The position numbers and the translations under genes were made by a program. Below the pieces are notes generated by a model. That model was not told where the DNA came from. It saw only the letters and a list, made by a program, of their open reading frames with translations, and did not search any database. Below, in pieces: positions 5,798 to 25,394 of a DNA stretch of 35,307 bases. The DNA is from Longimicrobiales bacterium (GTDB lineage Bacteria; Gemmatimonadota; Gemmatimonadetes; Longimicrobiales; Gaopeijiaceae): the NCBI GenBank assembly GCA_029941275.1, contig JAPYQK010000001.1, positions 19,205 through 54,511 of the forward strand. The letters are read 5' to 3'. Position 1 is the first letter of the stretch, and each line of letters begins with the position of its first letter.

Positions 5798-5952
5798 GGC
5801 GTGACGGGACGAGGTCGCCGAGACCCGACAGGACTCGCTCTCGGGAGTCGAGCCACTGGATGGCGCTGGAGTGATCTAGGACGCACGTTGTCCTGACGCG
5901 TTCAGGGACCCGCGGGTCGCCTATCCCATTTGGACGGATTCGATCGCCTCCC

Positions 5953-7659: not shown

Positions 7660-7744
7660 ACGCCGACTCATTTTCAAGGGGACAATAAATCATCAAGTGA
7701 CAGGGTAGCGGCCCTTACGTGTCCACGATCTGGCGGGATACCGA

Positions 7745-8090
7745 TCAGGAATCGAGGGCCCGCCTCATCTTTGTGGCAAGCTCACCCATGGAAACGGGTT
7801 TGGATAGGACTTCACTGCCTTCAGGCAGTGACTGGTCAGACAGGGACGCATACCCCGACATGAACAGGCATTTTAGTTCTGGCCGTTGCTCGTGGCATCT
7901 CCCGAATATCTCGATGCCGTTCATGCCCCCCGGCAAAGTGATGTCCGAGAGCAGGAGATCGAACGGCTCAGCTTCGGGCTGTCGCTCATCCGAAGGTTAT
8001 TTTCCGGGAGCTGTCCACGAACCTCCGGACCCGACCTGACGGACGGAAGGGCCGTAAGTAGCCCAGGGTCGTCTCGATGAGGGACTTCAT
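7745..8090 (-). pseudogene. CheY-like single-domain response regulator (receiver), disrupted by about two 1-nt frameshifts
   Basis: The span is 346 nt, about 115 codons, which is receiver size. ATG 8090 overlaps the SDR stop (ATGA) and reads MKSLI. A second frame reads DDPGLLTALPSVRSGPEV. A third frame, open after the TAA at 7997-7999, reads PFDLLLSDITLPGGMNGIEIF...KCLFMSGY...LSKP, carrying the phospho-Asp, Ser/Thr and Lys positions. Confidence 0.6.
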
Positions 8091-9058
8091 CTCGCCCCGG
8101 TCAACTCCTCGCTCACCCTGCGAAGCTGGGCACGAGCGTCCACGTCGTACGCCTGGTCGTTCGCACGAGACGGCCGCAGGCCATTGAAGTAACCACCACT
8201 CCCGATATCGGTCGACGTGACCAGCTGCAGTACGGCCTCCGCACCCTCGCCGACGGTCGCGCGCGGTGTGAGCCCCGCCCTCCGCACCATCGCCGTGTCC
8301 ATGTAGGTAGCGGGGTGCAGCGCGTTCACGATCACACCGGTCCCCTCCAACTCCTCAGCCAAATCGATCGTGAACAGAATCTGAGCGAGTTTGCTCTGGG
8401 CGTAGGCACGCCCCCCGCTGAAGTTGTTCTCGATCATGACGTCGTCGAAGTCGATCGGCTGCTGGGCGCCCGACGACACGTTGACGATACGGGACGGAGC
8501 GTTCTCCACGATCAGCGGTAAGAACATCCGCGTCAGGAGGAAGTGCGAGAGGTGATTTACTTGGAAGCGGAGCTCGTGCCCATCCTTCGAGACCATCCGC
8601 TCGTCAGGTGCCCTTCCAAAGCCAGCGTTGTTGACGAGCACATCGAGCCGGTCGTAGTCACGCAGGACGGCCTCACCGAATGCCCTGACTTGGTCGAAAG
8701 ACCCGAGATCCGCCTGGTAGAAGCGGGCGTTGCCGACGCCTTCGCTCCGGATCGCCTGGACGACCTCCATCCCGCGCTCGCGGTTCCGGCCGTGTACGAT
8801 GACGAAGTAGCCCATTGCACCGAGTCTGCTCGCGACCTCACGCCCCAGTCCGCCCGTCGAGCCCGTGACGAGCGCGACCTGCTGTCCGGGTCGGGGGGTC
8901 TCCTGCGCTTCGACGGTCGGTGCGATCACAACTGTCGCCAGGAGGAGGCCACCCAAGAGCGTTGCAAATCGCCTAGTGCCTGATGAGAAGAACGTTCCTT
9001 CGTTTGTGAGAATCCCGCCGGCCCGCCACTCCAGTTCTTGGCTCTTGCTCAGGTTCAT
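8087..9058 (-). CDS. classical short-chain dehydrogenase/reductase (SDR) with N-terminal Tat-like signal or membrane anchor
   Basis: Start set at ATG 9058, with AAGGAG 8-9 nt upstream. TGSTGGLG (TGxxxGxG), NNAG and YAQSK (YxxxK) motifs. N-terminus GTRRFATLLGGLLLATVVIAPTVEAQE. The ORF-track extension 9059-9277 has no SD and an Arg-rich composition. Confidence 0.85.
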   Translation of the reverse strand: MNLSKSQELEWRAGGILTNEGTFFSSGTRRFATLLGGLLLATVVIAPTVEAQETPRPGQQVALVTGSTGGLGREVASRLGAMGYFVIVHGRNRERGMEVVQAIRSEGVGNARFYQADLGSFDQVRAFGEAVLRDYDRLDVLVNNAGFGRAPDERMVSKDGHELRFQVNHLSHFLLTRMFLPLIVENAPSRIVNVSSGAQQPIDFDDVMIENNFSGGRAYAQSKLAQILFTIDLAEELEGTGVIVNALHPATYMDTAMVRRAGLTPRATVGEGAEAVLQLVTSTDIGSGGYFNGLRPSRANDQAYDVDARAQLRRVSEELTGAR

Positions 9059-9282
9059 TTGTCGATTTCTCCTTGCGTCCCCAGTCTTGGTGGAGCTTAG
9101 GGATACGATTTTCGACCGGTTCTGTCCACGCAGGAGGCCCCCCGGGCGTGACACGCTCACCGAACAATGTGCTCTCATTCTCGTTGCCGGCTCCTCAATA
9201 TCGCTAAACCCCCACGCGACTCGCGAGCAGGGCGTCGGACGTTTCATTCGCCAGCGTGGCCGCCTCCGGCCCATCACCCCGT

Positions 9283-10023
9283 CTAAGGATACAAAGCCCT
9301 AAACGTGCCCTCATCGGCCTCGGAGAACGGCGAAGCCCGCTCAATGTCGTCCCAGTCCTGCAGTTGTTCACGAAAGCGCATAAAGTAGTCGACGAAGTCG
9401 CCCCCAAACTGGAACGAGTACATGATGTCCGCGAACGCACTCGTATGGGGAAGCCCGAACGCATGGCCTAGCTCGTGGACACATGTCAAATAAACGACCG
9501 TATCTCTGAAGAGCGGATCTAGCCTAGCTCTCTGGGCGATGTCCGGCCCGAGAGATTCGGTATCGGGGTGTACGAACACGTCGGCAGCGAGCCGCCCATT
9601 TACCACTCTCCCCCGCATCTCGCCGTAGAGACCACCACCGGCCTCCACCCAATAGACACGAATGGTCGCGGACTCTTCAGGGCCCGGCACCATGTCTACG
9701 GGGGGATTCGTCTGGCGGCCCCAAGCCTGTAGCGCCCATTCGGCCAGCGTGCGGTCTTCCGCTTTGAACCCCGATCGGGGAGAGCCCTCCGAAATGAAGT
9801 ACGTGATCGGCTGGGAACGGTCCAACCGCCAGACCTCCTGCTGCCCATTTGAAATAACGGACGGAGCGACGGCGGGAGCTGTTCCTCCGGTGGCGGCAGG
9901 ACGTGCTCGGCTGGCCACAGAAGAGGCTGGATCCGCCGCTAGAGCGGCAACTGCCGCAACACAAACGGCGAGGAGGATGCCGCCAGGAATCATCTTTGAG
10001 GAGATCGTCATGAGGGAGAACAC
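9283..10023 (-). CDS. secreted metzincin (matrixin/M10-like) zinc metalloprotease
   Basis: 246-aa ORF. VHELGHAFGLPH (HExxHxxGxxH) is followed by the Met-turn candidate ADIMYS. Signal peptide GGILLAVCVAAVAALAA. The start is ambiguous: GTG 10023, ATG 10011 or ATG 9993. Confidence 0.8.
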   Translation of the reverse strand: MFSLMTISSKMIPGGILLAVCVAAVAALAADPASSVASRARPAATGGTAPAVAPSVISNGQQEVWRLDRSQPITYFISEGSPRSGFKAEDRTLAEWALQAWGRQTNPPVDMVPGPEESATIRVYWVEAGGGLYGEMRGRVVNGRLAADVFVHPDTESLGPDIAQRARLDPLFRDTVVYLTCVHELGHAFGLPHTSAFADIMYSFQFGGDFVDYFMRFREQLQDWDDIERASPFSEADEGTFRALYP

Positions 10024-10024
10024 C

Positions 10025-11062
10025 CTAGTGGGGAGGGGGCTGCGTGTCCTCCAGCGCCTCTTCCGCCTCCGATTCGATCGAACCTAACCGGATCCCGAGC
10101 TTAGACGCGTAGTAGAGCCCGAGCAGGGTGACCGGGACGAATCCAGCTATGTGGTACCCAATCGCCAAAGAAAGCGTGGGCTCCGCAGCGACACCGAAGA
10201 CATCCTGCACGCTCACAGCCACTCCAGCCTGCAGGGTCCCGATGAATCCCGGGGCAGCTGGAATGGCCACGAACATCGAGACCGCGCATTGGGTGAAGAT
10301 CGCAGCGGTAACCCCCAAGTCGATATCGAAGGCCCTGAAGCCGACCCAGAACGAAGCGGCCATCCAGATCCAAACGGCCAGTGACCAGAGAAGCGCCTGG
10401 AGCATTGCCACCGGTCGACGTAGTAGATCCAGCCCCGACAAGAATGATTCCAGCTGCGTTGTCAGACCATCCTGAACATGACCGGGGAGTATCCGAGCGA
10501 ACCACCGGACGAAGCTCGTCACACGAGCCGGCCAACGGATGATCAAGGAAAGGGACACCAGCGCTACGACAGAAAAGATGATCGCCCCTGACACCGCATA
10601 CTCGATGGAACGGCCAAGCACTGTAGCGTCGTCGGGGAAGGCGGGCGAGAGAAGTGCCACGATTAGGAGCAGCAGCAGAGCGATGGCATCCAAGACACGC
10701 TCTAGCACGATGGTGCCGAGCGCACTGGACATTGAGACGGGGCTCATCCGGCTCAGCGCATAGGGGCGAACAATCTCGCCCAGACGAGCGGGGTACACGT
10801 TCGTCACCATAAAGCCGATGTTGAGCGACGTCCATCGTGTATAGAGGGACGTCTCAACACCAACCGGTCCCAGGAGAAGATTCCATCGGAGTGCTCGGAT
10901 CAAACCGCCCGCGGTCGAGATCGCACCGGCAGCCAGTAGCCAACCGAAGTTCGCCGAAGCCAGGCGACTCCCGATGACACCCAGGTCTTCGCCCCGGAAC
11001 GTCCACCACAGAAAGAACGCTGATACGGCCAAGCCTAGACCGATTTTCCAATCGAGTTTCAT
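10025..11062 (-). CDS. UPF0104 / lysylphosphatidylglycerol-synthase-TM-region (flippase-like) integral membrane protein
   Basis: 345-aa polytopic ORF. The N-terminus MKLDWKIGLGLAVSAFFLWWTFRGEDL...GGLIRALRWNLLL is typical of the LPG_synthase_TM family. There is no C-terminal aminoacyl-transferase domain. The stop TAG 10025-10027 sits 1 nt before the protease GTG. Confidence 0.75.
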   Translation of the reverse strand: MKLDWKIGLGLAVSAFFLWWTFRGEDLGVIGSRLASANFGWLLAAGAISTAGGLIRALRWNLLLGPVGVETSLYTRWTSLNIGFMVTNVYPARLGEIVRPYALSRMSPVSMSSALGTIVLERVLDAIALLLLLIVALLSPAFPDDATVLGRSIEYAVSGAIIFSVVALVSLSLIIRWPARVTSFVRWFARILPGHVQDGLTTQLESFLSGLDLLRRPVAMLQALLWSLAVWIWMAASFWVGFRAFDIDLGVTAAIFTQCAVSMFVAIPAAPGFIGTLQAGVAVSVQDVFGVAAEPTLSLAIGYHIAGFVPVTLLGLYYASKLGIRLGSIESEAEEALEDTQPPPH

Positions 11063-11193
11063 CCGAGCGGACTCTCCAGAAATTCTATCCGGTTTCCAAA
11101 AGGATCGACGGTGTAGAGGCGACGTGACCCAGGAAACGACTCTCGAGGAGGGACGGCTTCACTCCTTCCGAACCAGTCGGTTGTGCGAAGTAA
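11059..11193 (-). pseudogene. C-terminal relic of a glyoxalase/VOC-family gene
   Basis: Only about 45 codons lie between the Nudix stop and TGA 11059-11061. They end ...GSRRLYTVDPFGNRIEFLESPLG, the typical last strands of a VOC domain (DP-x-GN-x-IE). The stop overlaps the downstream ATG 11062 as ATGA. No start codon and no room for the first ~80 residues. Confidence 0.35.
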
Positions 11194-11194
11194 C

Positions 11195-11662
11195 CTAAGT
11201 TGATTGGACGGAGTCACCACAATCGATCGGAAACTCAGGGTACTCACCTCGGAGAATCGCTGGAAGCAGATCCCCCAGCCAACGGGGCGAGAAGAGGGCA
11301 GTCGATGCAAGAATTTCGTCCAGACTCCACCATCGATGGCCAACGACGTGCCGGTCTTGATCCATAGGGGCCGGCTCCGCACCCTCCGCGCCCGGGGCGA
11401 CAAAGAAGCGCTCGTACTGATCGATGCGTTTGCGACGCCATTCAAACATGTGGCGTCGAGTCCATACACACGGACCCAGCGCGAGGGAGAATCCTGTCTC
11501 TTCGAAGAGCTCCCTCCGTGCGGCCGCCTCAAAGCTCTCACCGCCTTCGAGACCCCCGCCCGGCGTCATCCAGAACCGTCGGTCCGTGATCGGGTCCGCC
11601 GCCTTGAGAAGAAAGAGCCGGTTTTCGTTGCTGATGACGAGCACCCGCGCGACGGATCTCAA
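11195..11662 (-). CDS. Nudix hydrolase
   Basis: 155-aa ORF. Nudix box GGGLEGGESFEAAARRELFEETG (GX5EX7REUXEEXGU). The C-terminal tail WWSLDEI...FSPRWLGDLLPAILRG is as seen in many actinobacterial-type Nudix proteins. Confidence 0.88.
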   Translation of the reverse strand: MRSVARVLVISNENRLFLLKAADPITDRRFWMTPGGGLEGGESFEAAARRELFEETGFSLALGPCVWTRRHMFEWRRKRIDQYERFFVAPGAEGAEPAPMDQDRHVVGHRWWSLDEILASTALFSPRWLGDLLPAILRGEYPEFPIDCGDSVQST

Positions 11663-11782
11663 GCCACCCAGCTCAAGACCTTTTAGTCGCCAGGCCTTCC
11701 TCGGCTCGACTTGGGGAGTCCGCAGGTTCAGGGGCTTCCCCGTTTTGCACGGCCACTGTCGGCCTCACCAACTCCAGCCGTG

Positions 11783-12561
11783 TCACGAACCCATGGCCTT
11801 CTCGACCAGAACATTGGCGCCTCTCCGATTTTTCCATCTAGCCGTCGCCATCCCCAATACGAAAAGCAGTGGTACCGAGTTTTCCGGCGTAAGATCAGCG
11901 TCTCGGGCCCCACCCGTGCGCTTCCGCACCATGAGCGTGGACAGAACTATGCTGACTTCGTAGAGGAGAATCAGGGGGCCAAAAAGAAGCAGCGTAACGG
12001 GGCCGAAATCGCCCGGACTCAAAACAGCCGCGAGGATCGTGATAACCACGAATGCATGCCGACGCTTCGCGCGGAGGAACGCCGGACTCACGAGCCCGAG
12101 TGACGTAAGGATGACCACAACCACCGGCAACTCGAATGTAATCCCAAAAGCCAAGAGTATCTGCAAGTGACCGACGAGCAGGATTGAATCACTGCAAGGA
12201 AGGGTAATCCCGTGGGCATGCAGCAAATCGCCGTAAATGTGGTCACGAGCAAAGCGGCGGCAGAGAGTTCCTCGACGCCGGCGCCGATCTCCGCTATCGT
12301 GGGCCCCGCTACCGCGAGTATCAGCACGCCTGCTGCGGCCAGCATCCCCGTTCGACGCCACATCATTGGCTGTTGAACGGGCGGTCGTCGGTTGCAGGCC
12401 GACCCGCGCGACCCGTCCCATCGCCGCCAGTCTGACTCAAGATGTACCGGCTACGGAGCAGGAGAGCGGTACGGCAATTCACGGATGAGTTGCGTGTCGA
12501 CGTACGGGTTCAGACGGCGGGGGACCGCTGAGGCCACCGTCAGGCGCCCGCCTCGAGACAT
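11783..12561 (-). pseudogene. tatC: twin-arginine translocase subunit TatC, multiply frameshifted with an in-frame stop
   Basis: The C-terminal half (frame of ORF 11783-12421) carries the TatC signatures AFGITFELPVVVVILTSLGLVSPAFLRAKRRHAFVV and LSPGDFGPVTLLLFGPLILLYEVSI. The middle TM-like segments (GMLAAAGVLILAVAGP, FTAICCMPTGLPFL) are in another frame (ORF 12088-12366). The N-terminal MSRGG...TQLIREL from ATG 12561 is split from RTALLLRS by a 1-nt shift. TAG at 12451-12453. Confidence 0.6.
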
Positions 12562-12778
12562 GCGGCCGCCGCCGCGTGCAGTGCGAACGCCGCTCCCAGA
12601 GGCGTGGCGGAAGAAAAGCCTACCATCTAAGATCAGACTTGAACCGATGAGGCCTTGCGGTCCCGCCGCCCGGGTAGACGCCCCGTAGAGCGCCCGGCCG
12701 ACGACGCATTTGGACCGCTGTACGCAGGCCTCGTAAGGACCGATCAAACGCGCGACACATTCCAAAGGGGACCGCATC

Positions 12779-14959
12779 ATGAAGACTCGGAGAGTGGGGC
12801 TGCTGGCCACCGCCACGTTGCTGACCGGTGCGGTCGCTTGGGTCACCCCACTGGCTGGTCAGGCTCCCCAGCGAGATGAGATCGCCGGCGTCGTGATGAG
12901 CGGCAGCGGGCCGGAAGAAGGGGTATGGGTCATCGCCGAGACGGACGATCTGGCCACACGCTTCGTAAAGACGGTGGTCACCGGGGACGGCGGGCGCTTC
13001 CTGATTCCAGAGCTCCCCGAAGCCAACTACAGGGTCTGGGTCCGCGGATACGGCCTCGTCGACTCGCCGAAGATCGGCGCGACACCAGGGACCGACATCG
13101 AGCTCCAGGCGACCGTTGCCGCTACCGAGGCCGAAGCCGCCCAGGTGTATCCGGCCAACTACTGGTACTCACTGATCGAGCCGCCTGATGCGAGCGAATT
13201 CCCCGGCACCGGGCCTGATGGCAACGGGATCTCCACGAACTTGCAGACGCAGGGCCAGTGGGTGGACATCCAGAAGCAGGGTTGCATGCTGTGCCACCAG
13301 CTCGGCACCCAGATCGTCCGCGAAATCGAGAACATCGACGAATTCGACTCGACGATCGCCGCCTGGGATTACCGGGTTCAGATGGGGCAGCGGGGCGGGC
13401 AGATGAGCAACGTCATGAACCGATTCGGCCGCGAACGGGGCCTTCAGATGTTCGCCGACTGGAGCGACCGGATCGCATCGGGTGCGCTTCCACCAAGGCC
13501 GCCCCGCCCCGCCGGCGTCGAGCGCAACGTCGTCACCACGATGTGGGAGTGGGGCACCGAGGTCGACTACATCCACGACGAGATCGCGTCCGACAAGCGC
13601 GACCCGACCGTGAACGCCAACGGACCGGTTTACGGCGTCAATATCTCGAACGACGAGCTCGCCATTCTCGACCCTGTGACGCACGTGGCGACCAACCTCG
13701 AGATCCCGTTGCGGGCCGACCCGGCGACCGTGCGGCCGATGATTGCGCGGTCGATGGCGGTGCCATCGCGGTTCTACGGAGACAGGCTTGTCTGGAACGA
13801 CCCGGCCAACCCGCATAACCCCATGATGGACCAAGAAGGGCGTGTCTGGATGACGTCGGGCATCCGGGGTCGGCAGAACCCCGCGTGGTGCCAGGAAGGG
13901 TCTACCAACAAGTACGCGAGCTACTACCCGATGGCGAGCAGTGGGCGGTCCGCGGTCTACTACGATCCGACGACCGAGGAGTTCGTCATGGTCGACACCT
14001 GTTTCGGCACACACCACCTGCAGTTCGCCGAGGATGATGACAACACGCTCTTTTTCAGCGGCGGCGGCCAGGTCGTCGGGTGGATCGACACCGACGTATT
14101 CGACGAAACAGGCGATGAGCAGTTCTCGCAGGGCTGGTGTCCTACCGTCATCGACACCAACGGCGACGGCAGGATCACAAAGCCATGGAACGAGCCTGGG
14201 AGTAGAGACGACGGGAACTTCGACCCGAGCCGGGACACGCGTATAGTCGCGGGCAGCTATGGCCTCGTGGCCGACCCCGAGGTGGGCACGGCGGTCTGGC
14301 TCTCCTCGGCGCAGTACCCGGGCAGGGTCGTGCGCTTGGACACCGGCGACAACCCGCCGGCGACCTGCATCACCGAAATGTATGAGGTGCCCTCAGTGCT
14401 CGACCCCAGCGTGCCCGAGGAGGACACCGGATTCGGCCCGCGCGGCATCGACATCGACCGCAACGGAGTGGTGTGGACTGCGCTGTCGGGCAGCAGCCAC
14501 TTCGCCTCGTTCGACCGTAAGAAGTGCGACGCGAACGGGCCGGAGATCCTCGACGGGCGGCACTGCGTCGAGGGATGGACGCTCTATCCGACACCGGGCC
14601 CGTCGATCCAGAACACGGATCCACCGCTGCGAGCCGACTACCATTACTACAACTGGGTGGACCAGCACAATACGCTGGGTCTGGGCAACAACATCCCCAT
14701 CGCCAACGGATCGAACTCCGATGCGTTACTGGCGCTCGACCCAGAAACGGGCGAGTGGGTCGTCCTGCGCGTGCCGTATCCGCGAGGATTCTTCAGCCGC
14801 GGGCTCGACGGTCGTATCGACGACCCGGACGGCGGGTGGAAGGGTCGCGGCGTGTGGGCGACCTACGGCGCGGCGGCCACGTGGCACATCGAGGGCGGCA
14901 GGGGAGTCAAACCTGGGATAATCAAGTTCCAGGTCCGGACTGACCCGCTGGCCAACTAG
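12779..14959 (+). CDS. secreted CarboxypepD_reg-domain + single CxxCH + beta-propeller-like protein, function unknown
   Basis: 726-aa ORF with AAGGGGA 8 nt upstream. Signal MKTRRVGLLATATLLTGAVAWVTPLAGQ. GVVMSGSG...GGRFLIPELPEANYRVWVRGYG is a CarboxypepD_reg domain. CMLCH at 13283-13297. Repeated blade-like segments follow (DQEGRVWMTS, GPRGIDIDRNGVVWTA, LLALDPETGEWVV), reminiscent of Vgb-lyase-type propellers. Confidence 0.75.
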   Translation: MKTRRVGLLATATLLTGAVAWVTPLAGQAPQRDEIAGVVMSGSGPEEGVWVIAETDDLATRFVKTVVTGDGGRFLIPELPEANYRVWVRGYGLVDSPKIGATPGTDIELQATVAATEAEAAQVYPANYWYSLIEPPDASEFPGTGPDGNGISTNLQTQGQWVDIQKQGCMLCHQLGTQIVREIENIDEFDSTIAAWDYRVQMGQRGGQMSNVMNRFGRERGLQMFADWSDRIASGALPPRPPRPAGVERNVVTTMWEWGTEVDYIHDEIASDKRDPTVNANGPVYGVNISNDELAILDPVTHVATNLEIPLRADPATVRPMIARSMAVPSRFYGDRLVWNDPANPHNPMMDQEGRVWMTSGIRGRQNPAWCQEGSTNKYASYYPMASSGRSAVYYDPTTEEFVMVDTCFGTHHLQFAEDDDNTLFFSGGGQVVGWIDTDVFDETGDEQFSQGWCPTVIDTNGDGRITKPWNEPGSRDDGNFDPSRDTRIVAGSYGLVADPEVGTAVWLSSAQYPGRVVRLDTGDNPPATCITEMYEVPSVLDPSVPEEDTGFGPRGIDIDRNGVVWTALSGSSHFASFDRKKCDANGPEILDGRHCVEGWTLYPTPGPSIQNTDPPLRADYHYYNWVDQHNTLGLGNNIPIANGSNSDALLALDPETGEWVVLRVPYPRGFFSRGLDGRIDDPDGGWKGRGVWATYGAAATWHIEGGRGVKPGIIKFQVRTDPLAN

Positions 14960-15126
14960 CGGCAACTGTTTCCAGCAACCGAAGACGCTGCCCGGTGGGA
15001 TGGCGCCCCGCAATCTTTGACGGTAGTGGGTCAGTCTCGTACCACAACCCCGCCCATCGCACATTTGACGCAACTGGCAGGAACTGGGTATTCTCCCCTA
15101 AGCCTGTCTCCGGAGGAGTAAACACG

Positions 15127-16512
15127 ATGCCCCGTCCAATCATCGAGTGGAAATCCGTCTTCGCGATCGCGCTGGCGTTTGCAGCTATCGCATTTACCGC
15201 ACCCGTCCCGCTCACCGCCCAGGAGTCCGACGCGGTGACCTTCACCAGGGATATCGCCCCGATTCTGCAGCGCAGCTGTCAGCAGTGCCATCGACCGGGT
15301 GGTGTGGCCCCCATGCCACTCGTCAGCTACGAGGACGTGGCGCCCCACGCCATGGCCATGATGCGGCGCACCAGTATTCGTGATCGCCAAGGCACGATGC
15401 CGCCGTGGTACGTCGAGAAGGACATCGGCATTCAGGAGTACAAGGACGATCCGTCGCTGAACGACGAAGAGGTCGCGGCCATCGCCGCGTGGGCTCGAAG
15501 CGGAGCGCCAGAGGGCGATCGCGCGGACATGCCGCCTGCCCTGGTCTTCGAGGAGACCGTCGGTTGGAGGCTCGGAGAGCCGGACTTGATCGTGTCGACG
15601 GAGGACATCGTCGTGGACGCCGACTCGCCGGACTGGTGGGGCTCGCTGAACAACATTCCGATCGATTTGGCGGAAGACCGGTACGTCGCCTCCATGGAGA
15701 TTCGGGAGATCAACGACGTCAAGGATAGTGGAAGACTCGACCGGGAGACCGTCGGCGGACTGTACGTCTTCCATCACATGCTCTTTAGTACGGCCTCTCG
15801 GGGCAGTCGCCCCACCACGTGGCCCGTTCATGAAGTCGGCCGCAACCCGGACATCTTCGATCCGGGCGCCGGTCAGCTCCTCGCGGCAGGTTCGGTGCTC
15901 GTTCCGAGCTCGGTGCACCTGCACTCCAACGGCCTCGACACACGTGCTCGACTGGAGGTCGGGTTCCGGTTCCATCCCGTGGGTTATGAGCCGAAGTACC
16001 GCCAAGCCCAGATGGTGATCGCAAACGGCGTCGACATCGACATCAAGCCGGAAGAAGCCAATCAGCAGCTCCACGCCTACGCGGTGCTGCAGCAGCCCAC
16101 CAAGATCGTCACGTTCGAGCCGCATTTGCACGCGCCCGGACAACGGATGTGCCTGGAGGCGATCTGGGGCTTCAACGTGGAAACGCTCGCCTGCACGGGT
16201 TATGACCACAATTGGGTGCGTGGCTACACCTTTGCCGACAACCACCAGCCACTGCTGCCCGAGGGCACGGTCCTTCACATCATCGGCTACATGGACAACA
16301 CGGGTGCGAACCGCAACATCCCCGACCCGAGAAACTGGCAAGGTTCCGGCAACCGCTCCGTGGCCAACATGTTCCTTGACCTCGGCATGAGGCTCACGCT
16401 CACCGACGAGCAGTTCGAGCAGGAAATGGCGGATCGGCGTGAGATTCTCGACCTGGGGGTGAACGATCACGTGATCGGATGTCCGCTCTGTATGGTGATA
16501 CCGGGGAATTAG
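15127..16512 (+). CDS. exported mono-haem cytochrome c domain fused to PHM/DBH-like (copper type II monooxygenase-like) domains
   Basis: Start set at ATG 15127, with GGAGGAG 8 nt upstream. Signal MPRPIIEWKSVFAIALAFAAIAFTAPVPLTAQ. RDIAPILQRSCQQCHRPGG...MPPW (CxxCH at 15277-15291). FHHMLF (15772-15780), HLH (15916-15924), RFHP, EPHLHAPG (16123-16131) and NMFLDLGM resemble the CuH/CuM ligand order of PHM. Confidence 0.7.
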   Translation: MPRPIIEWKSVFAIALAFAAIAFTAPVPLTAQESDAVTFTRDIAPILQRSCQQCHRPGGVAPMPLVSYEDVAPHAMAMMRRTSIRDRQGTMPPWYVEKDIGIQEYKDDPSLNDEEVAAIAAWARSGAPEGDRADMPPALVFEETVGWRLGEPDLIVSTEDIVVDADSPDWWGSLNNIPIDLAEDRYVASMEIREINDVKDSGRLDRETVGGLYVFHHMLFSTASRGSRPTTWPVHEVGRNPDIFDPGAGQLLAAGSVLVPSSVHLHSNGLDTRARLEVGFRFHPVGYEPKYRQAQMVIANGVDIDIKPEEANQQLHAYAVLQQPTKIVTFEPHLHAPGQRMCLEAIWGFNVETLACTGYDHNWVRGYTFADNHQPLLPEGTVLHIIGYMDNTGANRNIPDPRNWQGSGNRSVANMFLDLGMRLTLTDEQFEQEMADRREILDLGVNDHVIGCPLCMVIPGN

Positions 16513-16513
16513 G

Positions 16514-17506
16514 ATGAGGCGACATGGCTCTCGGAGACGGAATATGAGACACGGGCAAGGAACCCTGGGCGGAGTAGTGTGGGCCGGGTTGGTAGCAATG
16601 GCCGTAGTGATGCCCAGCCAGCAGGCGAGCGCCCAGCTCGCGTACCAGACAGGCCAGAACATCTCACCGGCATTCGAGGGGTGGGAGGCGAACGAGGACG
16701 GTTCGTTCAGCATGGTGTTCGGGTACATGAACCGGAACTGGCTAGAGCAGCTCGACGTTCCAGTAGGGGCGGAGAACAACATCTCGCCTGGGCCCGCGGA
16801 TCAAGGCCAGCCCACACACTTTCTTCAGCGCCGCAACCGGTACGTGTTCAAGGTCCGCGTGCCTGCGGACTTCGGCGATCAAGAGTTGGTGTGGACGCTG
16901 ACGACACAAGGAATCACGCAAGCGGCCTACGGGACCCTCAAGTTGGACTACAAACTCGACTACAACGTCATCGCCTCGGAGACAGGGGCGCTCTCCATCG
17001 GTATCAGCACCGAGGAGTCCAGAGCCAACAGGCCGCCGACTGTCTCCGTGGTCGGCGACCCGGTGCGAACGACCCAAGTCGGAGAGCAAGTCACTTTGGT
17101 GGCCCGTGTCATCGACGACGGTCTCCCAAGTGTGCGCCGCCGGCCTGCACGCCCCCCGAGCGACGAAACGCCCAGGTTGTCCGCAACCCAGTTGCGTCCG
17201 CCGTCACGGTTCACCGTCGAAAAAGTCATCGGATTGCACCTGTCGTGGTTCGTCATGCGGGGCGACAGTGACGTCATGTTCGATCCTCCGCAGATCAAGA
17301 CCTGGGAGGATACGAGGACCGGCGCCAACTCACCGTGGTCACCGCTCTTCTCCATGCCCGAGCCACCTGAGAACGGAGAGTGGACGGTGCAAGTCACCTT
17401 CGATGAGCCGGGTACTTATGTGCTCCGCGGCCGCGCGGACGATGGCGGATTGTACGGCGACACGGACGTGAGGATCACGGTGACGCCAGCCACAGCGTTC
17501 GAGTAG
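16514..17506 (+). CDS. secreted protein of unknown function, abutting the cyt c-monooxygenase-like gene
   Basis: 330-aa ORF. ATG 16514 lies 1 nt after the upstream TAG (TAGGATG). Signal GGVVWAGLVAMAVVMPSQQASAQ. The C-terminal EWTVQVTFDEPGTYVLRGRADDGGLYGDTDVRITV looks like an Ig/PKD-like beta-sandwich. No named family recognised. Confidence 0.7.
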   Translation: MRRHGSRRRNMRHGQGTLGGVVWAGLVAMAVVMPSQQASAQLAYQTGQNISPAFEGWEANEDGSFSMVFGYMNRNWLEQLDVPVGAENNISPGPADQGQPTHFLQRRNRYVFKVRVPADFGDQELVWTLTTQGITQAAYGTLKLDYKLDYNVIASETGALSIGISTEESRANRPPTVSVVGDPVRTTQVGEQVTLVARVIDDGLPSVRRRPARPPSDETPRLSATQLRPPSRFTVEKVIGLHLSWFVMRGDSDVMFDPPQIKTWEDTRTGANSPWSPLFSMPEPPENGEWTVQVTFDEPGTYVLRGRADDGGLYGDTDVRITVTPATAFE

Positions 17507-17523
17507 ATTCCTCTAGCGCTCGG

Positions 17524-17552
17524 TCCCGCGGCTCGGTTGGGGAGCCGCGGGA
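17524..17552 (+). terminator. perfect GC-rich hairpin, likely intrinsic terminator of the 15127-17506 unit
   Basis: tcccgcggctc (17524-17534) and gagccgcggga (17542-17552) form a perfect 11-bp stem with a 7-nt loop, 18 nt after the stop at 17506. Only a weak T-run (gcttt) follows. Confidence 0.6.
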
Positions 17553-19346: not shown

Positions 19347-21158
19347 CTAGCGCGTCCGCTCCCGGATCAAATCAGCGGTAAGCGCCGCAAGCGCTTCGGA
19401 AATCTCGCGACCCAGCACGAGAGAGCGCTCCAGATCCTCGATCGAAAAGCCGTCGATCGAGGCTTGACCCGTCGCGACGCGTTCGGCCCAGCGCACCGAC
19501 GCTGGATCAGAAGCCATCATGTTGAGCGTGATGTACGGCTGGTCGTGCAGCCCGTCGCTCGGCGCGTCAGGGAGTAGGCCCTTCTCCCGAAGGACGTCCC
19601 GAGATCCTTCTGGCTCCCGGTAGTACTCGGGAATGTGCATCGCTCTGGCCTCGCCCGCCCACTCGGCGTTCAGCGCCACAGCGACGTTGTTCATGCCTGC
19701 GCGGTTACCCCCCGAATCCCCGATGAAGATGATGTTCTCGAAGCCGTGCACCTCTAGACTGCGGGCGATGTCGGTCAAGAGCGCCTCGAAGGTCTCCTGG
19801 CGAAGGCTGATCGTGCCGGGACTGCGCATGTGGCCCGACCGCGGTTCAATCGTTCCTTCGGGAACCCACTTCACGATCGGAGCACAGAGCGCATTGCCCA
19901 GGTTCCGCGCGATCGCTTCGCAGTTGGCGTCGAGCACGTAGTTATGCTTGCCCATAACCAGCCAAGGACCGTTCGGCTCCAGACCGCCGGTGGCAATAAT
20001 CGCGGTGGTTTTCCCGGCGGCCAAGGCGTCGCGGATGTCCATCCACGTCATCTCCCCGAGCCACACGGTGTTGGCTTCGGGAAGCGGATTGGGCGTGTCC
20101 GAGCAGTTGTAGACGTTTTGGCGGCAGTCGCCTCCGCCCATCGTACGGGGATCTGGCGCTGGGCGTGCGGGTCGGGCCGCACCCCCTCCCCCCGCCGCAC
20201 CACCACCCGCCGCTCCTCCACCACCGCCCCCACGCTGACGGCGAGCCGGAAGCGGCACCGTGCCCCCATTTGTGATCGCCGCGCTGATCGCCTTTACAGT
20301 GTAGTCGGCCCGAAAAGCGACGAGGGCACGCGCCAACTCCAGGTTGTCTACTCGATCGACCAACGAGACGCCGTTGATCATGGCGAGGCCCGCTTCCACT
20401 CGTTCCGCCCAGCGGATCGAAACAGGGTCGTCGATGAACATGTTGAGCGAGATGACCGGGTCGTCGTGCAGATTGTCCCCATCACCCCAGACCAGTCCGT
20501 GCTCCTCCTCCATGTAGCGGCTCGCAGTGGCGTAGTCGTAGTACTCCTGAACGTGGCCCACGAGCGGAGTGCCCCCCCACCGCTCCGTGAGCTGATTCGC
20601 CACGGCCCGCTGGCCGCCTTGGTTTCCCCCGGAGTCGCCGAAGAAGATGATCTTCTCGAAACCGTGCATCTTGAAGGAGTGCGCGACATCGGTGAGCACG
20701 GCCTCGAACGTCTCCCGGCGCGCACTGATGGTGCCCGGGCTCCTCATGTGGCCGCTCGGAGGGTCGATGTTGCCTTCCGGAACGAACGGGATGATGGGCG
20801 CACACAAGGCGTTTCCGAGCTGACGGGCGATCGCGTCGCAGTTGGCGTGTAGGACGTAGTTGTGCTTACCCGCTGCCAACCAGGGACCGTTCGGCTCCAT
20901 CCCGCCGGTGGGAATGAGAACCGTGGTCTTACCGGAAGCCAGAGCGTCGCGAACGTCCATCCACGTCATTTCCTCTACCCAAACCGTGGTCGCCGTGGGC
21001 AACGGATTCGGTGTATCCGCACAGTTGTATACGTTCGCCTCACATCGCCCGCCACCCATGTCACGCGGGTCGCGATCCCGGCCCTGATGAGCGAAAACCG
21101 AGGTGCCGAGTGCGAGTGCGACTCCAGCGGTAACACTGGCGATCAAGAGGCTTTTCAT
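19347..21158 (-). CDS. secreted protein with two tandem creatininase-family-like domains joined by a Gly/Ala linker
   Basis: 603-aa ORF with Sec signal MKSLLIASVTAGVALALGTSVFAHQ. Each half carries TGG(M/L)EPNGPW, GHMRSPGTIS, HGFE-x-IIF-x-GDSGGN, resembling the creatininase pattern (EqHGpH ... pGTis ... Gf..i..vNgHGGN). Linker RRQRGGGGGGAAGGGAAGGGGAARPARP. Confidence 0.7.
   Translation of the reverse strand: MKSLLIASVTAGVALALGTSVFAHQGRDRDPRDMGGGRCEANVYNCADTPNPLPTATTVWVEEMTWMDVRDALASGKTTVLIPTGGMEPNGPWLAAGKHNYVLHANCDAIARQLGNALCAPIIPFVPEGNIDPPSGHMRSPGTISARRETFEAVLTDVAHSFKMHGFEKIIFFGDSGGNQGGQRAVANQLTERWGGTPLVGHVQEYYDYATASRYMEEEHGLVWGDGDNLHDDPVISLNMFIDDPVSIRWAERVEAGLAMINGVSLVDRVDNLELARALVAFRADYTVKAISAAITNGGTVPLPARRQRGGGGGGAAGGGAAGGGGAARPARPAPDPRTMGGGDCRQNVYNCSDTPNPLPEANTVWLGEMTWMDIRDALAAGKTTAIIATGGLEPNGPWLVMGKHNYVLDANCEAIARNLGNALCAPIVKWVPEGTIEPRSGHMRSPGTISLRQETFEALLTDIARSLEVHGFENIIFIGDSGGNRAGMNNVAVALNAEWAGEARAMHIPEYYREPEGSRDVLREKGLLPDAPSDGLHDQPYITLNMMASDPASVRWAERVATGQASIDGFSIEDLERSLVLGREISEALAALTADLIRERTR
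19350..20141. repeat. tandem intragenic duplication, unit 2 (C-terminal creatininase-like domain)
   Basis: Encodes residues ~340-603. By eye about two thirds identical to unit 1 over the first ~150 residues and more diverged afterwards. DNA similarity is visible, e.g. ggaccgttcggctcca and gtccatccacgtcat in both units. Confidence 0.8.
20178..20232. repeat. C-rich (plus strand) / G-rich (coding strand) low-complexity tract encoding the Gly/Ala linker
   Basis: ccgcaccccctccccccgccgcaccaccacccgccgctcctccaccaccgccccc. On the coding strand it has runs of 3-6 G separated by GGT/GGC-type triplets. It sits exactly at the junction of the two repeat units. Confidence 0.7.
20259..21059. repeat. tandem intragenic duplication, unit 1 (N-terminal creatininase-like domain)
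   Basis: Encodes residues ~34-300, starting DPRDMGGGRCEANVYNCADTPNPLP. Unit 2 starts 306 codons (918 nt) downstream in the gene with DPRTMGGGDCRQNVYNCSDTPNPLP. Confidence 0.8.
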
Positions 21159-21447: not shown

Positions 21448-23973
21448 ATGAGAACATTGAGCGCCGCGCTGGCAACGTTCGGACTGTTGTTCGTGCTCGT
21501 TGGGCAGACCGCCGATGCAGGGGTCGCACAACCGGAAGTGCTGAGGTCGACCGTGTCCGTGTCGGCCACCAGCATCCTCGCCGAAGCATTAGCGGCCATC
21601 CCTGTTGAAGCACGGTCGGAGATCATTCCGAAAGCACTACCGCACGTCCCTGCCGAAGGACTCTTGGACGTCCCTGCCGAAGCACTGTCGGAAGTGATCC
21701 AGGAGTATTGCGTCTCCTGCCACAACCGTGTCCGCCTCGAGGGGAATTTGTCGTTGACGGAGTTCGATGTCGAACGGGCCCCTGAGATGGCGGAAACCGC
21801 CGAGAAGATGATCCGAAAGCTCAGGGCCGGCATGATGCCTCCGGCGGGAAGGCCGCGGCCGCCCGCCGACACCTTGATGGCGCTCGTCGAGGATCTCGAA
21901 AGACGTATCGACGAAGCGGCGGCAGGAAATCCCAATCCGGGGTCCAGAACGTTCCAACGCCTTACACGGGCCGAGTATGCTGCGGCCGTTCGTGACCTTC
22001 TGGGACTCGAAATCGACGTCGCCGCTTACCTCCCACTCGACACCAAGAGCGCCAACTTCGACAACATCGCGGACGTCCAAGCCCCGTCGGCCACGGTCAT
22101 GGAAGGGTACATGCGGGCCGCCGGCTACGTGAGCCGGATCGCCTTGGGGGACGCTGAGGCCGAGGCCCAATCGACCCGGTATCGGCTCCCGCGCACCGCG
22201 TCACAGAAGGAGCGCGTCGAAGGGGCTCCTTTTGGAACGCGTGGCGGCGTGTCCATCATCCACAACTTCCCGGCCGACGGTAAGTACGTCTTCCACATTC
22301 AGCCTTACCCGGCGGTGGAAGGCGAGGTCTTCGGGCGAACGTTCGGGACGTCGCAGATCGAGGTTTCGATCGACGGCGCGCGGGTCGCGCTCATGACGGT
22401 GGACCGGTGGATGCGTGAGTCCGAGCCCACCGGCTTGAACATGCGAACGGATTCTATCTACGTGACCGCCGGCCCCAAGCGGGTGACCGCGGCATTCGTC
22501 CGCCAGTTCGAGGGTGAAGTGGACGACTTGATCCGGCCCATCGATCACACCCTGGCCGACGGCCAGATCGGTGTCGGGTACGGCATTACATCCATCCAGC
22601 ACCTGCAGCGACTGACGGTCCTCGGACCGTATGAGGTCACGGGAGTCTCGGACACGCCGACCCGACGTCGAGTCTTCACTTGCCGTCCGACAGCACCGGA
22701 CGAGGCTCGGCCGTGTGCCGAGAGCATCATCGCCCGCTTGGGCGCTCAGGCTTACCGGAGACCCCTCGACGAGAACGACCTCAGGGGGCTCATGCAGTTC
22801 TACGATGACAGCGCTGTTGAAGATGGCTTCGAGGGCGGTGTCCGGATGGCCCTTCAGGCGACCCTAGCGAGTCCCCACTTCCTGTTCCGAATGGAGGAGC
22901 AGCCGATCGGTGCGTTCCCAGGCGAGGTGCACCGAATCAGCGACGTGGACTTGGCGTCCCGGCTTTCCTTCTTCATCTGGGGTACCCCGCCTGACCAGGA
23001 GTTGACCGAGGTGGCGGGCCGCGGGGAGCTTTCGGCCCCCGGTGAAGTCGGGCGTCAAGCACGACGGATGTTGGCCGACCCCCGGGCAGAGGAGGCTCTG
23101 GCCACGCGCTTCGGAGGACAGTGGCTTCGTCTCCAGGATCTCGAAGAACTCCACCCTGACGCGCTGACGTTCCCCTACTTCGACGACACACTAGCCGAGT
23201 CCATGCGACGTGAGACCGAACAGCTGTTTTCGTATCTCATCCGCGAGGACCGCAGTGTTCTCGAACTGTTGACGGCCGACTACACCTTCGTGAACGAGCG
23301 CCTCGCCCGGCACTACGGAATCCCAGGCGTCGTCGGAGAGGGCTTTCAAAGAGTCGTGTATCCGGACGACCGTCGGCGGGGCCTGCTGGGTCACGGCAGT
23401 ATTCTCGCTATGACGTCTCACGCCGATCGGACGTCGCCGGTGCTGCGTGGCAAGTGGGTGTTGGAAGTGCTGCTCGGTACACCGCCACCGCCGCCGCCGC
23501 CCGACGTCCCCGCGTTCGAAGAGACGGACGAAGCGAATGAGGGGCGCTCACTGACTGTGCGCGAGCGTATGGAGCAACATCGCTCGAACCCAGCTTGTAT
23601 GGCTTGCCATGTGGTCATCGATCCCATCGGGCTCGCGTTGGAAAACTTCGACGTAACGGGAGCATGGCGCATCCGGGACGAGGGGAACCTGATCGATCCA
23701 GTTGGTGAGCTGTACGACGGGACCATCTTGAGAGGCCCGTCCGATTTGAGGGCGGCGTTGTTGAGCCGTCCAGAAGTTTTCTACCGGATTTTCACGACGA
23801 ACCTCATGGCCTACGGATTGGGCCGGCGGGTGGAGTATTTCGACATGCCGACGATTCGTGCGATCACGAGAGACGCGGCAGAGAACGCATACAACTTTTC
23901 TTCGTTCGTTTTGGGGGTCGTGAATAGCCCGGCCTTCCAGACGACTCGGGTGGACGTGGTCACCCCCGCCTGA
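21448..23973 (+). CDS. DUF1592-family protein (planctomycete PSCyt3/PSD-type; DUF1587/1592/1595/1588/1585 architecture)
   Basis: 841-aa ORF with a signal peptide. VIQEYCVSCHNRVRLEGNLSL (CxxCH at 21709-21723), GTPPPPPPPDVPAFEE and NPACMACHVVIDPIGLALENFD are hallmark segments of this family. It is followed by a DUF1552 gene, as is usual. Confidence 0.85.
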   Translation: MRTLSAALATFGLLFVLVGQTADAGVAQPEVLRSTVSVSATSILAEALAAIPVEARSEIIPKALPHVPAEGLLDVPAEALSEVIQEYCVSCHNRVRLEGNLSLTEFDVERAPEMAETAEKMIRKLRAGMMPPAGRPRPPADTLMALVEDLERRIDEAAAGNPNPGSRTFQRLTRAEYAAAVRDLLGLEIDVAAYLPLDTKSANFDNIADVQAPSATVMEGYMRAAGYVSRIALGDAEAEAQSTRYRLPRTASQKERVEGAPFGTRGGVSIIHNFPADGKYVFHIQPYPAVEGEVFGRTFGTSQIEVSIDGARVALMTVDRWMRESEPTGLNMRTDSIYVTAGPKRVTAAFVRQFEGEVDDLIRPIDHTLADGQIGVGYGITSIQHLQRLTVLGPYEVTGVSDTPTRRRVFTCRPTAPDEARPCAESIIARLGAQAYRRPLDENDLRGLMQFYDDSAVEDGFEGGVRMALQATLASPHFLFRMEEQPIGAFPGEVHRISDVDLASRLSFFIWGTPPDQELTEVAGRGELSAPGEVGRQARRMLADPRAEEALATRFGGQWLRLQDLEELHPDALTFPYFDDTLAESMRRETEQLFSYLIREDRSVLELLTADYTFVNERLARHYGIPGVVGEGFQRVVYPDDRRRGLLGHGSILAMTSHADRTSPVLRGKWVLEVLLGTPPPPPPPDVPAFEETDEANEGRSLTVRERMEQHRSNPACMACHVVIDPIGLALENFDVTGAWRIRDEGNLIDPVGELYDGTILRGPSDLRAALLSRPEVFYRIFTTNLMAYGLGRRVEYFDMPTIRAITRDAAENAYNFSSFVLGVVNSPAFQTTRVDVVTPA

Positions 23974-23998
23974 ACCAGCAACCTCGAGGTCGAAAACG

Positions 23999-25384
23999 AT
24001 GAAGTTCATCACAGGAAAACACATCTCCCGGCGGACCGCGCTTCGCGGCATGGGCGCTTCTCTCGGCCTTCCGCTTCTCGATGCCATGATTCCGGCAGGA
24101 CGTTTGTGGGCGTCGACGCCCACAGCGGCTGATGTGGACGCCACCCGCTTGGTATGTATAGAGCAGGTCCACGGAGCAGCCGGGTGTAACGACCTGGGAG
24201 CCTCGATGAACCTCTGGTCGCCCAAAGCCACCGGGAGTGACTTCGACCTGTCGCCTACGAGCTTGAAATCGTTGGAGCCCTTCCGTGACTATCTGACCAT
24301 CATCAGTGACACGGACTCGCGTATGGCTGACGCCTTCTCCCCTGAGGAGATCGGCGGAGACCACTTCCGGACCGCCGCGGTGTTCCTCACGCAGGCGCAT
24401 CCGAAGCAGACGGAAGGGTCGGACGTTTTCGTGGGCACGTCGTTCGACCAGATCTTCGTAAAGCACCTCAGCAACGGCACGCCGATTCCGTCTGTGCAGC
24501 TGTCCATCGAGAACGTGGATCAGGCGGGTGGCTGTGCCTACGGCTATGCATGCGCCTACACGGACACGATTAGTTGGGCCTCTCCGAGCGAGCCGCTCCC
24601 GATGGTCCGCGATCCCCGCGCTGTTTTCGAGATGTTGTTTGGTGCCGGGGGTACTCCTGAGCAGCGCGCGAAGCGGCGGCAGGCCGATCGCAGCATCCTA
24701 GACTGGATGCTGGAGGAGATTTCCGCACTGCAGCGGACCCTGGGGCCGGCCGATCGTCACCGCCTCGACCAGTACACCTCGAACATCCGTGAGCTGGAGG
24801 AGCGCATCCGGCGGATCGAAGAGCAGAACGCGAGTGGTGAAGAAAGGGAGATCCCTGAGGCACCGGTGGGCGTTCCGGACGACTTTGCCGAGCATATGGA
24901 GTTGATGTTCGACCTCCAGGTTCTGGCTTTCATGTCGGACACCACCCGCGTGTTCTCGTTGAAGATGGGTCGGGACGCGTCCCCGAGAGTGTTCGCGGAG
25001 AGCGGCGTCACCACGCCATTCCACTCTTCGTCGCACCACGGCGGCCGCGAGAGTCGCGTGCTCGACTTCGCAGCGATCAACTCCTATCACGTCGGAATGC
25101 TGCCCTACTTCCTGGAGAAGTTGAAGAACACGATGGAGGGCGATTCGAACCTGCTGGACAAGACTATGATCGTGTATGGATCCGCCATGGCGGACAGCAA
25201 CCTGCACAACCACATCCGGTGCCCGCTATTCCTGGTGGGTGGCGCTAACGGCAAACTCGCCGGCGGCCAGCACGTCCGGGCTCCCATGGGTACACCCATG
25301 GCGAACGTCATGCTCGACATGCTGCACAAGCTCGATGTGGATATCGATTCGTTCGGTAACAGCACCGGCACATTCACCATCTGA
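23999..25384 (+). CDS. DUF1552 domain protein with twin-arginine signal
   Basis: 461-aa ORF. MKFITGKHISRRTALRGMGASLGLPLLDAM is the canonical DUF1552 Tat N-terminus. FHSSSHHGG motif. GAGG 9 nt upstream; 25 nt after the DUF1592 stop. Confidence 0.85.
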   Translation: MKFITGKHISRRTALRGMGASLGLPLLDAMIPAGRLWASTPTAADVDATRLVCIEQVHGAAGCNDLGASMNLWSPKATGSDFDLSPTSLKSLEPFRDYLTIISDTDSRMADAFSPEEIGGDHFRTAAVFLTQAHPKQTEGSDVFVGTSFDQIFVKHLSNGTPIPSVQLSIENVDQAGGCAYGYACAYTDTISWASPSEPLPMVRDPRAVFEMLFGAGGTPEQRAKRRQADRSILDWMLEEISALQRTLGPADRHRLDQYTSNIRELEERIRRIEEQNASGEEREIPEAPVGVPDDFAEHMELMFDLQVLAFMSDTTRVFSLKMGRDASPRVFAESGVTTPFHSSSHHGGRESRVLDFAAINSYHVGMLPYFLEKLKNTMEGDSNLLDKTMIVYGSAMADSNLHNHIRCPLFLVGGANGKLAGGQHVRAPMGTPMANVMLDMLHKLDVDIDSFGNSTGTFTI

Positions 25385-25394
25385 GGAGCGCGAC

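Follow-up and report, generated by a model that had tools for sequence, protein, structure and literature searches.

Pairing of a cytochrome c–PHM-like gene with a secreted partner gene across bacterial phyla points to a candidate periplasmic copper monooxygenase system

The stretch of DNA analyzed here, referred to throughout as the window, consists of 35,307 nucleotides (positions 19,205 to 54,511) of contig JAPYQK010000001.1 from the Longimicrobiales bacterium assembly GCA_029941275.1, and has a G+C content of ~62%. Three consecutive open reading frames (ORFs) on the forward strand of the window, designated g1, g2, and g3, are the subject of this analysis (Table 1), and attention was focused on g2, which encodes a c-type haem domain followed by a region resembling the copper monooxygenases PHM (peptidylglycine alpha-hydroxylating monooxygenase) and DBH (dopamine beta-hydroxylase), and on g3, which encodes a secreted protein. 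An initial annotation of the window had described these genes as three exported, co-oriented members of one periplasmic oxidative module, and the three ORFs were confirmed exactly where that annotation had placed them, all on the same strand. The signal peptides of all three proteins were assigned by eye only. Hydrothermal-vent metagenomes contain the window sequence almost in full, and Gemmatimonadota are the source of the nearest homologues. In public annotation, g2 is named a “mono/diheme cytochrome c family protein” and g3 is “hypothetical”, and NCBIfam holds no family for g1, g2, or g3. Sequence searches of the PDB with single sequences and profiles of the three proteins returned nothing besides the haem motif, and the link to PHM described below was therefore made by fold and ligand pattern alone.

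Table 1. Positions of the genes and sequence features of the g1–g3 region, in window coordinates
Feature	Position	Strand	Description
g1	12779–14959	+	726 amino acids; exported; N-terminal CarboxypepD_reg-like domain and one CxxCH
Promoter-like element TTGACG-N18-TATTCT	15065–15094	+	Consensus scan; lies in the g1–g2 gap
Shine-Dalgarno GGAGGAG	15112–15118	+	8 nt before the g2 ATG; from the sequence and conserved columns in alignment A5
g2	15127–16512	+	461 amino acids from ATG; signal peptide, haem c domain, and PHM/DBH-like two-domain copper monooxygenase (predicted)
Haem c domain of g2	15229–15516	+	Residues ~35–130; CxxCH at 15277–15291; axial M91 in MPPW
PHM-like N-domain of g2	15574–16026	+	Residues ~150–300; CuH-type ligands H216, H217, H264
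PHM-like C-domain of g2	16039–16461	+	Residues ~305–445; CuM-type ligands H333, H335, M415
g3	16514–17506	+	330 amino acids from ATG 16514, or 320 from ATG 16544; exported; two beta-sandwich domains
Inverted repeat	17524–17534 / 17542–17552	+	Perfect 11-bp stem, 7-nt loop, 18 nt past the g3 stop

The family to which g2 belongs comprises at least 5860 sequences at E ≤ 0.001, the best 120 of which are all at least 64% identical, and a g2 profile searched against 1.84 billion cluster representatives matched 13,172 clusters at E ≤ 0.001, of which 6920 reached E ≤ 1e-10 and 902 reached E ≤ 1e-30. Conservation within the family was assessed in an alignment of 38 close homologues (A1) and in a second alignment of 20 superfamily representatives with 33–64% identity (A3). 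The class-I haem c residues C51, C54, H55, and M91 are invariant to 33% identity in A3, bearing out the CxxCH motif that the initial annotation had pointed to in this protein. M91 lies within an MPPW motif, after which comes an amphipathic helix with W at its end; we take this arrangement to resemble the region around the axial Met in small c-type cytochromes of bacteria. The Pfam model Cytochrome_CBB3 matched g2 with 23.1 bits (E 1e-4), which is under its cut-off of 27, and was matched in 38 of 38 close family members. Weak profile matches of this domain to the haem domain of hydrazine synthase alpha and to 4rlr were also obtained.

In an AlphaFold2 model of g2, built from 38 sequences, the N-terminal domain is helical and two beta-sandwich domains come after it. 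When this model was compared with the PDB using Foldseek, every one of the top 31 matches was either PHM or human DBH, with E-values from 2e-7 to 5e-5, a probability of 1.0, and target template-modelling scores of ~0.45–0.55. The copper ligands of PHM are H107, H108, and H172 at CuH and H242, H244, and M314 at CuM (PMC12164859). In g2, H216-H217, H264, H333-x-H335, and M415 follow that order and fall in the corresponding domains, and all six are invariant in A1. In the more divergent A3, the only invariant residues with cofactor potential are C51, C54, H55, M91, H216, H217, H264, and H333, while at least 90% of the sequences retain H335 and M415; the remaining histidines of g2 (H235, H266, H316, H361, and H384) are unconserved in this alignment. 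The ligand pattern is also retained by three types of diverged paralogue encoded in related loci (VVHHAN...HMFPGG...FQPHGH...DEM and ATHHIV...LHYQ...HAHLRG...DDM). Among distant relatives, sub-threshold Pfam matches (E 0.0015–0.04) were found at the expected places, to Cu2_monooxygen in the N-domain of P0390 and to Cu2_monoox_C in P0421, P0455, and the L004 paralogue. Read from sequence and model, g2 is thus predicted to consist of a signal peptide, a mono-haem cytochrome c, and a PHM/DBH-type monooxygenase with two separate putative copper sites. The cytochrome c–PHM fusion put forward by the initial annotation stands at the level of fold and ligands but has no curated family match.

The weaker fold matches of g2 include PNGase-type and lectin-like jelly rolls (Foldseek ranks 37 and 47) and g2 matches no Pfam catalytic domain, both of which would fit a PHM-like region that is a non-catalytic binding module of the PHM/PNGase F-type beta-sandwich, with its conserved His and Met residues serving a structural role. 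However, it is exactly the six PHM ligand positions that persist to 33% identity while the other histidines vary, and a region fused to a redox haem domain is unlikely to serve in binding alone; we consider such a module extremely improbable. Separately, the C-terminus of g2 carries a CxxC motif (C452-P-L-C455, window 16480–16491) that is invariant in the close family and absent from distant members, which end earlier. This motif may form a redox disulfide or serve in the handling of Cu(I).

The family of g3 is on par with that of g2 in size and conservation, with at least 7814 homologues, each of them publicly named “hypothetical protein”. In the alignment of this family (A2), a signal peptide precedes ~120 conserved residues, which a variable linker of low complexity connects to a conserved C-terminal domain; no Cys, His, or Met is conserved. 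Foldseek searches with the AlphaFold2 model of g3, which consists of two beta-sandwiches, gave generic tandem Ig/PKD-like matches only, and Pfam searches of all g3 homologues gave only weak and uninformative matches to DUF6538 and PKD. The Ig-like character suggested by the initial annotation is therefore retained as Ig/PKD-like beta-sandwich character, but it comes from a low-confidence model only, and assignment of a specific fold was dropped because the confidence of the model was too low. The same annotation had g3 start 1 nt past the g2 stop codon, which holds if translation begins at ATG 16514, but public gene calls take ATG 16544, which has a GGAG 8–11 nt upstream.

Downstream of g3, the inverted repeat is the sole perfect stem-loop of at least 11 bp with a real loop in the window, and it extends to ~17 bp with a bulge. 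It is present and perfect as described by the initial annotation, which had it closing the unit, but it lacks a following T-run, is passed over by a terminator scan, and has no counterpart in the relatives L092, L006, and L093. We consider it likely to be a structure at the 3′ end of the transcript.

Gene neighborhoods were then compared across genomes. The synteny scan, which used one genome per species, returned at least 573 matching stretches, and the best 80 loci, all with at least 60% identity to g2, were analyzed. These loci come from Gemmatimonadota, Acidobacteriota (Vicinamibacteria), and Gammaproteobacteria (Pseudohongiella and other Pseudomonadales), with one from Chryseolinea. A g3 gene lies directly downstream of g2 on the same strand in 65 of the 73 loci with room downstream; in another five a g3 relative is located elsewhere in the locus, and in the other three none was found within 10 kb. 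This adjacency covers Gemmatimonadota, Acidobacteriota, and Gammaproteobacteria, in keeping with the proposal of the initial annotation that g3 is the secreted partner of g2. Its view of the pair as an extracytoplasmic redox unit that has no characterized homologue is likewise supported. In L081, a diverged second system has a g3-like gene (9494–10516, 27% identity, pairwise E 1e-21) directly upstream of a g2-like gene (10714–12081, 27% identity), and the existence of this paralogous pair indicates that the g2–g3 partnership is older than the divergence of the subfamilies. The gene order in this second system is reversed, and its g3-like protein ends in a CCW motif that is absent from g3. In L004, a single 4.66-Mb Gemmatimonadota contig, the pair is present as a tandem duplicate (5514–7867 and 8001–10354; 72% and 76% identical to g2), and a third cytochrome c–PHM-like paralogue with 32% identity is encoded at 111–1595 on the reverse strand.

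Clustering of the neighbors in the 80 loci revealed no other gene that tracks the pair across phyla. The genes pnp, infB, truB, rbfA, nusA, and rimP and a gene for a mutase were rejected as partners, as they reflect housekeeping synteny within Pseudohongiella, and a pyrroloquinoline quinone (PQQ) dehydrogenase found in 10 loci from three phyla was discounted since its distance and orientation vary.

The first gene of the trio, g1, belongs to a family of at least 8000 sequences that are named “carboxypeptidase regulatory-like domain-containing protein”. The CarboxypepD_reg domain (PF13620) assigned to g1 by the initial annotation was matched by 17 of 17 aligned homologues (best E 3e-9), although the window protein itself scores 20.8 bits against a cut-off of 32.3. 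The CxxCH noted in g1 was verified as C169/C172/H173, invariant in the same 17 homologues. The propeller that the initial annotation proposed for g1 remains putative, as residues 120–726 had no match in Pfam or in PDB sequence searches.

If the three genes formed one periplasmic oxidative module, the haem groups of g1 and g2 would together make up an electron path and g1 would bind the substrate. The genes are adjacent on one strand, the g1 CxxCH is invariant, the order g1-g2-g3 is kept in L092, and in the L001/L013 lineage a 49%-identical g1 relative is encoded 2.4 kb from the pair, on the opposite strand. These points are outweighed by the synteny of the families, whose absence the initial annotation had itself named as grounds for rejecting the module and which proved to be lacking for g1. 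A g1 relative occurs within 10 kb of g2 in only 1 of the 80 representative genomes, and the order g1-g2-g3 recurs only in the closest relative, L092, whose g2 is 86% identical and whose g1–g2 gap is 477 bp, compared with 167 bp in the window; the order is thus local synteny inside one lineage. Homologues of g1 with 72–90% identity are found in other contexts, such as beside an esterase, with neither g2 nor g3 nearby. The presence of a conserved promoter-like element of its own before g2, within the 167-bp gap, casts further doubt on the membership of g1. The three-gene module is therefore largely refuted and in our judgment very unlikely, and we regard g1 as a separate conserved haem c protein that lies upstream of the pair by chance in this lineage, as a neighbor and not a member. 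In four Acidobacteriota loci (L088–L091), the g1 homologue (8001–10181, 72–73% identical) stands directly before a CarboxypepD_reg-type TonB-dependent receptor (10248–12625) and a MoxR/DUF58/VWA gene set, a context that suggests outer-membrane uptake rather than the g2–g3 pair.

The sequence between g1 and g2 (14960–15126) was aligned with the region upstream of g2 in a total of seven Gemmatimonadota loci with differing upstream genes (A5). TTGAC and GTATTCT boxes corresponding to the promoter-like element are kept in all seven, as are a CGTCTCC motif and an AAGGAG ribosome-binding site, while farther upstream the sequence is unconserved. At window positions 15104–15119, and at the aligned sites in L092, L006, L093, L004, and L007, CGTCTCC stands right before AAGGAG or GGAGGAG, forming a CTCC-N0-3-GGAG inverted motif. 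The arms of this motif are too near each other to form a hairpin, and it could be a regulator site or an element of the 5′ untranslated region. No terminator was indicated 3′ of g1, as the predicted folding of the gap did not surpass that of shuffled sequence (z = +1.8). An alternative start of g2 at GTG 14995, which would add 44 residues, was rejected because the extension is absent from homologues and the ATG at 15127 has a strong Shine-Dalgarno sequence. A long antisense ORF of 583 amino acids (15031–16782) was also rejected as a gene, its apparent conservation merely mirroring that of g2.

The homologous genes are expressed in the sea. Four marine metatranscriptomes contain exact or near-exact contigs of the g2 and g3 genes of L002, a homologous TARA locus, and one of these contigs (9342–9645) spans the g2/g3 junction, while no RNA contig was found over the gene upstream of g2 in the same four metatranscriptomes. 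These contigs support co-transcription of g2 and g3 without amounting to proof.

The reading that we favor, with confidence slightly above even, is that g2 and g3 constitute a self-contained, co-transcribed two-gene unit for a periplasmic, O2-dependent copper-hydroxylase system that is fed by its own haem c. The exported g2 protein would carry one covalently attached c-type haem (C51-x-x-C54-H55, with Met91 as the sixth ligand) directly before the CuH domain, with the first beta-sandwich holding a His3 CuH site and the second a His2Met CuM site. The haem c domain may take electrons from the periplasmic respiratory pool, in place of ascorbate, and pass them to CuH and from there to CuM, where O2 would be activated and a C–H bond of the substrate hydroxylated. 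With a degree of constraint equal to that of g2 and no ligands for a cofactor, g3 is proposed to be an obligatory subunit in a putative complex with g2, either structural or forming or gating the substrate site.

Several observations weigh against this reading. Confidence in the g2 model is moderate (predicted local distance difference test (pLDDT) of 67.8 and predicted template-modelling score of 0.68), and the model of g3 is poor (pLDDT 55.7). Neither Cu2_monooxygen nor Cu2_monoox_C matched g2 or any of its 38 close homologues, even at E ≤ 10, and no sequence-level match of g2 to PHM or DBH was obtained, with PDB profile searches recovering the haem domain only. As the Foldseek results came without a residue alignment, the equivalence of the ligands was established by motif order and conservation and not by superposition. 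Residues R240, N316, and Y318, which hold the peptide carboxylate in PHM (PMC12164859), have no counterpart in g2, where the motif-anchored (approximate) positions are E331 and F416–D418, and the substrate therefore cannot be inferred from that of PHM. With respect to expression, the window itself is represented by only one exact RNA contig, of 181 nt (15136–15316), from one oligo-dT marine run, and the RNA evidence described above consists of assembled contigs of a homologue, possibly including DNA carry-over. The oligo-dT run also contains many diverged fragments and is indecisive for the g1–g2 gap.

That the substrate-binding residues of PHM are not kept would suit a g2 that acts as a small-molecule reductase or oxidase, for instance on nitrite or another oxyanion at CuM, with electrons passing from haem c through both coppers to the substrate as in cytochrome c-fused copper nitrite reductases. 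A fused c-type haem as the point of electron entry is typical of periplasmic reductases. PHM copper binds nitrite and azide, and 3mib, 3mlk, 3mih, and 3mll are among the fold matches of g2. Yet the combination of His3 and His2Met sites is the signature of the O2-activating PHM, DBH, and TBM (PMC12164859; PMC2988203), and neighbor clustering found no recurrent denitrification or other respiratory genes beside the pair. We judge this function unlikely.

Related loci provided leads as to the substrate of the favored hydroxylase system. Genes for a secreted NHL-repeat propeller are located near the cytochrome c–PHM-like pair at L007:621–1631, L051:14730–15803, L081:8000–8995 (reverse strand), and L055:1039–2103; the gene is directly upstream of g2 in L007 and between the two PHM-like systems in L081. 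The best PDB match of the propeller is the catalytic core of rat PAL (3fvz), with E 2e-28 over the full length and E 3.7e-19 for the N-terminal half, compared with 9e-10 for the next NHL protein. The Zn-ligand motif “PHG” is kept, and the position of the catalytic Tyr of PAL aligns to His. Some related loci also encode a periplasmic HpcH-type aldolase, an L-serine dehydratase, or a D-serine-dehydratase-like protein. Together with PF00144 genes, these PAL-like, HpcH-type, and serine-dehydratase neighbors give a hint of peptides or amino acids as substrates. No such gene flanks the pair in the window, where the sole HpcH/HpaI-type ORF (27818–28852) is ~11 kb from the pair and 24% identical to the related-locus protein.

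These neighbors raise the question of whether the pair could be the hydroxylase half of a bacterial amidation-type pathway for peptides or N-acyl-glycines, in which a PHM step followed by a PAL step acts on the C-terminal residues of periplasmic peptides. Eight loci from ~5 lineages encode the secreted NHL propeller no more than 10 kb away from g2, and PF00144 serine hydrolases (D-peptidase/beta-lactamase family) are adjacent or near in ~15 loci. However, NHL propellers and PF00144 proteins are commonplace in these genomes and the neighbor counts are raw, no PAL-like gene is present in the 35-kb window or in most loci, the position of catalytic Tyr654 is taken by His in the PAL-like protein, and g2 does not match PHM at R240, N316, and Y318. 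An amidation-type pathway is accordingly regarded as quite unlikely.

The superfamily also includes P0455, a 1251-residue protein that contains AhpC/TSA, a cytochrome c motif, a thioredoxin-like domain (Thioredoxin_8), and a second cytochrome c–PHM-like unit. This fusion suggests that thiol-based donors exist besides haem-based ones and that donors built into the protein recur in the bacterial PHM-like superfamily, and it places g2 in a broader bacterial group whose PHM-like regions are fused to redox donors.

Elsewhere in the window, a “Planctomycete-type” gene pair on the forward strand (21448–25384) encodes a PSD3/PSD5/PSD4/PSCyt3/PSD2 cytochrome-like protein and a DUF1552 (HXXSHH) protein, and a pair of the same type is also found downstream of g2–g3 in L092. 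A second “Planctomycete-type” pair, on the reverse strand (32273–35307), encodes a DUF1501 protein and a PSD1 (DUF1553)/Laminin_G_3 protein. The exported 603-residue protein encoded at 19347–21158 (reverse strand) contains two creatininase-like halves with a Gly/Ala-rich linker between them, and a similar Cys-containing motif (MGGG.C..NVYNC.DTPNPLP) stands at the start of both. Nearly all of the 664-residue protein encoded at 25176–27170 (forward strand) consists of ankyrin repeats, and such proteins are uncommon in free-living bacteria; as the ORF shares ~200 nt with the end of the DUF1552 gene, its true start is probably later than 25176. In the ORF at 11783–12421 (reverse strand), residues 86–143 match only the C-terminal quarter of the TatC profile (146–203 of 208) and the rest does not look like TatC, so that the ORF may be a tatC that was truncated or frameshifted, or else its frame or start may be wrong.

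PHM, DBH, and TBM are known from textbooks for their part in making the neuropeptides and catecholamines of animals. In the literature searched, no characterized prokaryotic member of this group was found, and no paper on bacterial cytochrome c-fused PHM-like enzymes turned up in a literature search whose coverage left out subscription journals. Like these copper type II ascorbate-dependent monooxygenases (PF01082 and PF03712), g2 is extracytoplasmic and has two consecutive beta-sandwich domains in which His-His...His is followed by His-x-His...Met, in the same order and with similar spacing, giving His3 and His2Met sites. Unlike the eukaryotic enzymes, g2 is bacterial and has an N-terminal c-type haem domain, which they lack; DBH carries a DOMON domain in its stead. 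Ascorbate would not be expected in the periplasm of a bacterium. It further differs from them in having no detectable sequence similarity in Pfam or PDB searches, in the extra C-terminal CxxC (C452/C455) of its subfamily, and in its obligatory link to the separate partner gene g3, and it differs from PHM in lacking the residues that bind the peptide carboxylate. The route by which electrons reach CuM is still debated (PMC12164859), and a bacterial haem c-fused version, if real, would offer a natural system for long-range electron delivery to CuH and CuM that dispenses with ascorbate.

Other known systems share parts of this architecture. Three-domain NirK types are periplasmic copper enzymes that carry their own c-type haem as a built-in donor and transfer electrons between metals. 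The likeness of cytochrome c-fused NirK to g2 is one of architecture by analogy only, and no homology is claimed, as NirK has a cupredoxin fold with type 1 and type 2 copper and reduces nitrite rather than activating O2. The bacterial Cu2_monoox_C proteins fused to AhpC/TSA or thioredoxin domains, which are uncharacterized Pfam architectures, resemble g2 in combining a PHM-like region with fused redox donors, as in P0455; in g2 the donor is haem c only, and the partner g3 is added. A literature search found no function for these bacterial fusions. The g2 family is unusually conserved, with at least 60% identity between phyla, and is seen in marine metatranscriptomes, and the pair probably carries out a common, unrecognized oxidation in Gemmatimonadota, Acidobacteriota, and Pseudohongiella of marine and sediment habitats.

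The closest parallel to the PAL-like neighbors is the animal bifunctional PAM, in which PHM and PAL are combined. About five bacterial lineages encode a PAL-like NHL propeller beside a cytochrome c–PHM-like gene, although the bacterial genes are separate and not fused, the window and most loci lack the PAL-like gene, and the PAL Tyr aligns to His. More tentatively, and with clearly less confidence than we place in the two-gene unit itself, g2–g3 might represent a large, cross-phylum, ocean-expressed class of bacterial periplasmic copper monooxygenases of the PHM/DBH type that are wired to the respiratory chain by a built-in cytochrome c in place of ascorbate and depend on a dedicated non-cofactor subunit. 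The substrate of such a class could be an abundant dissolved organic compound or a peptide terminus, and in those lineages that also have the PAL-like lyase it might be a prokaryotic counterpart, possibly the ancestor, of animal peptide amidation.

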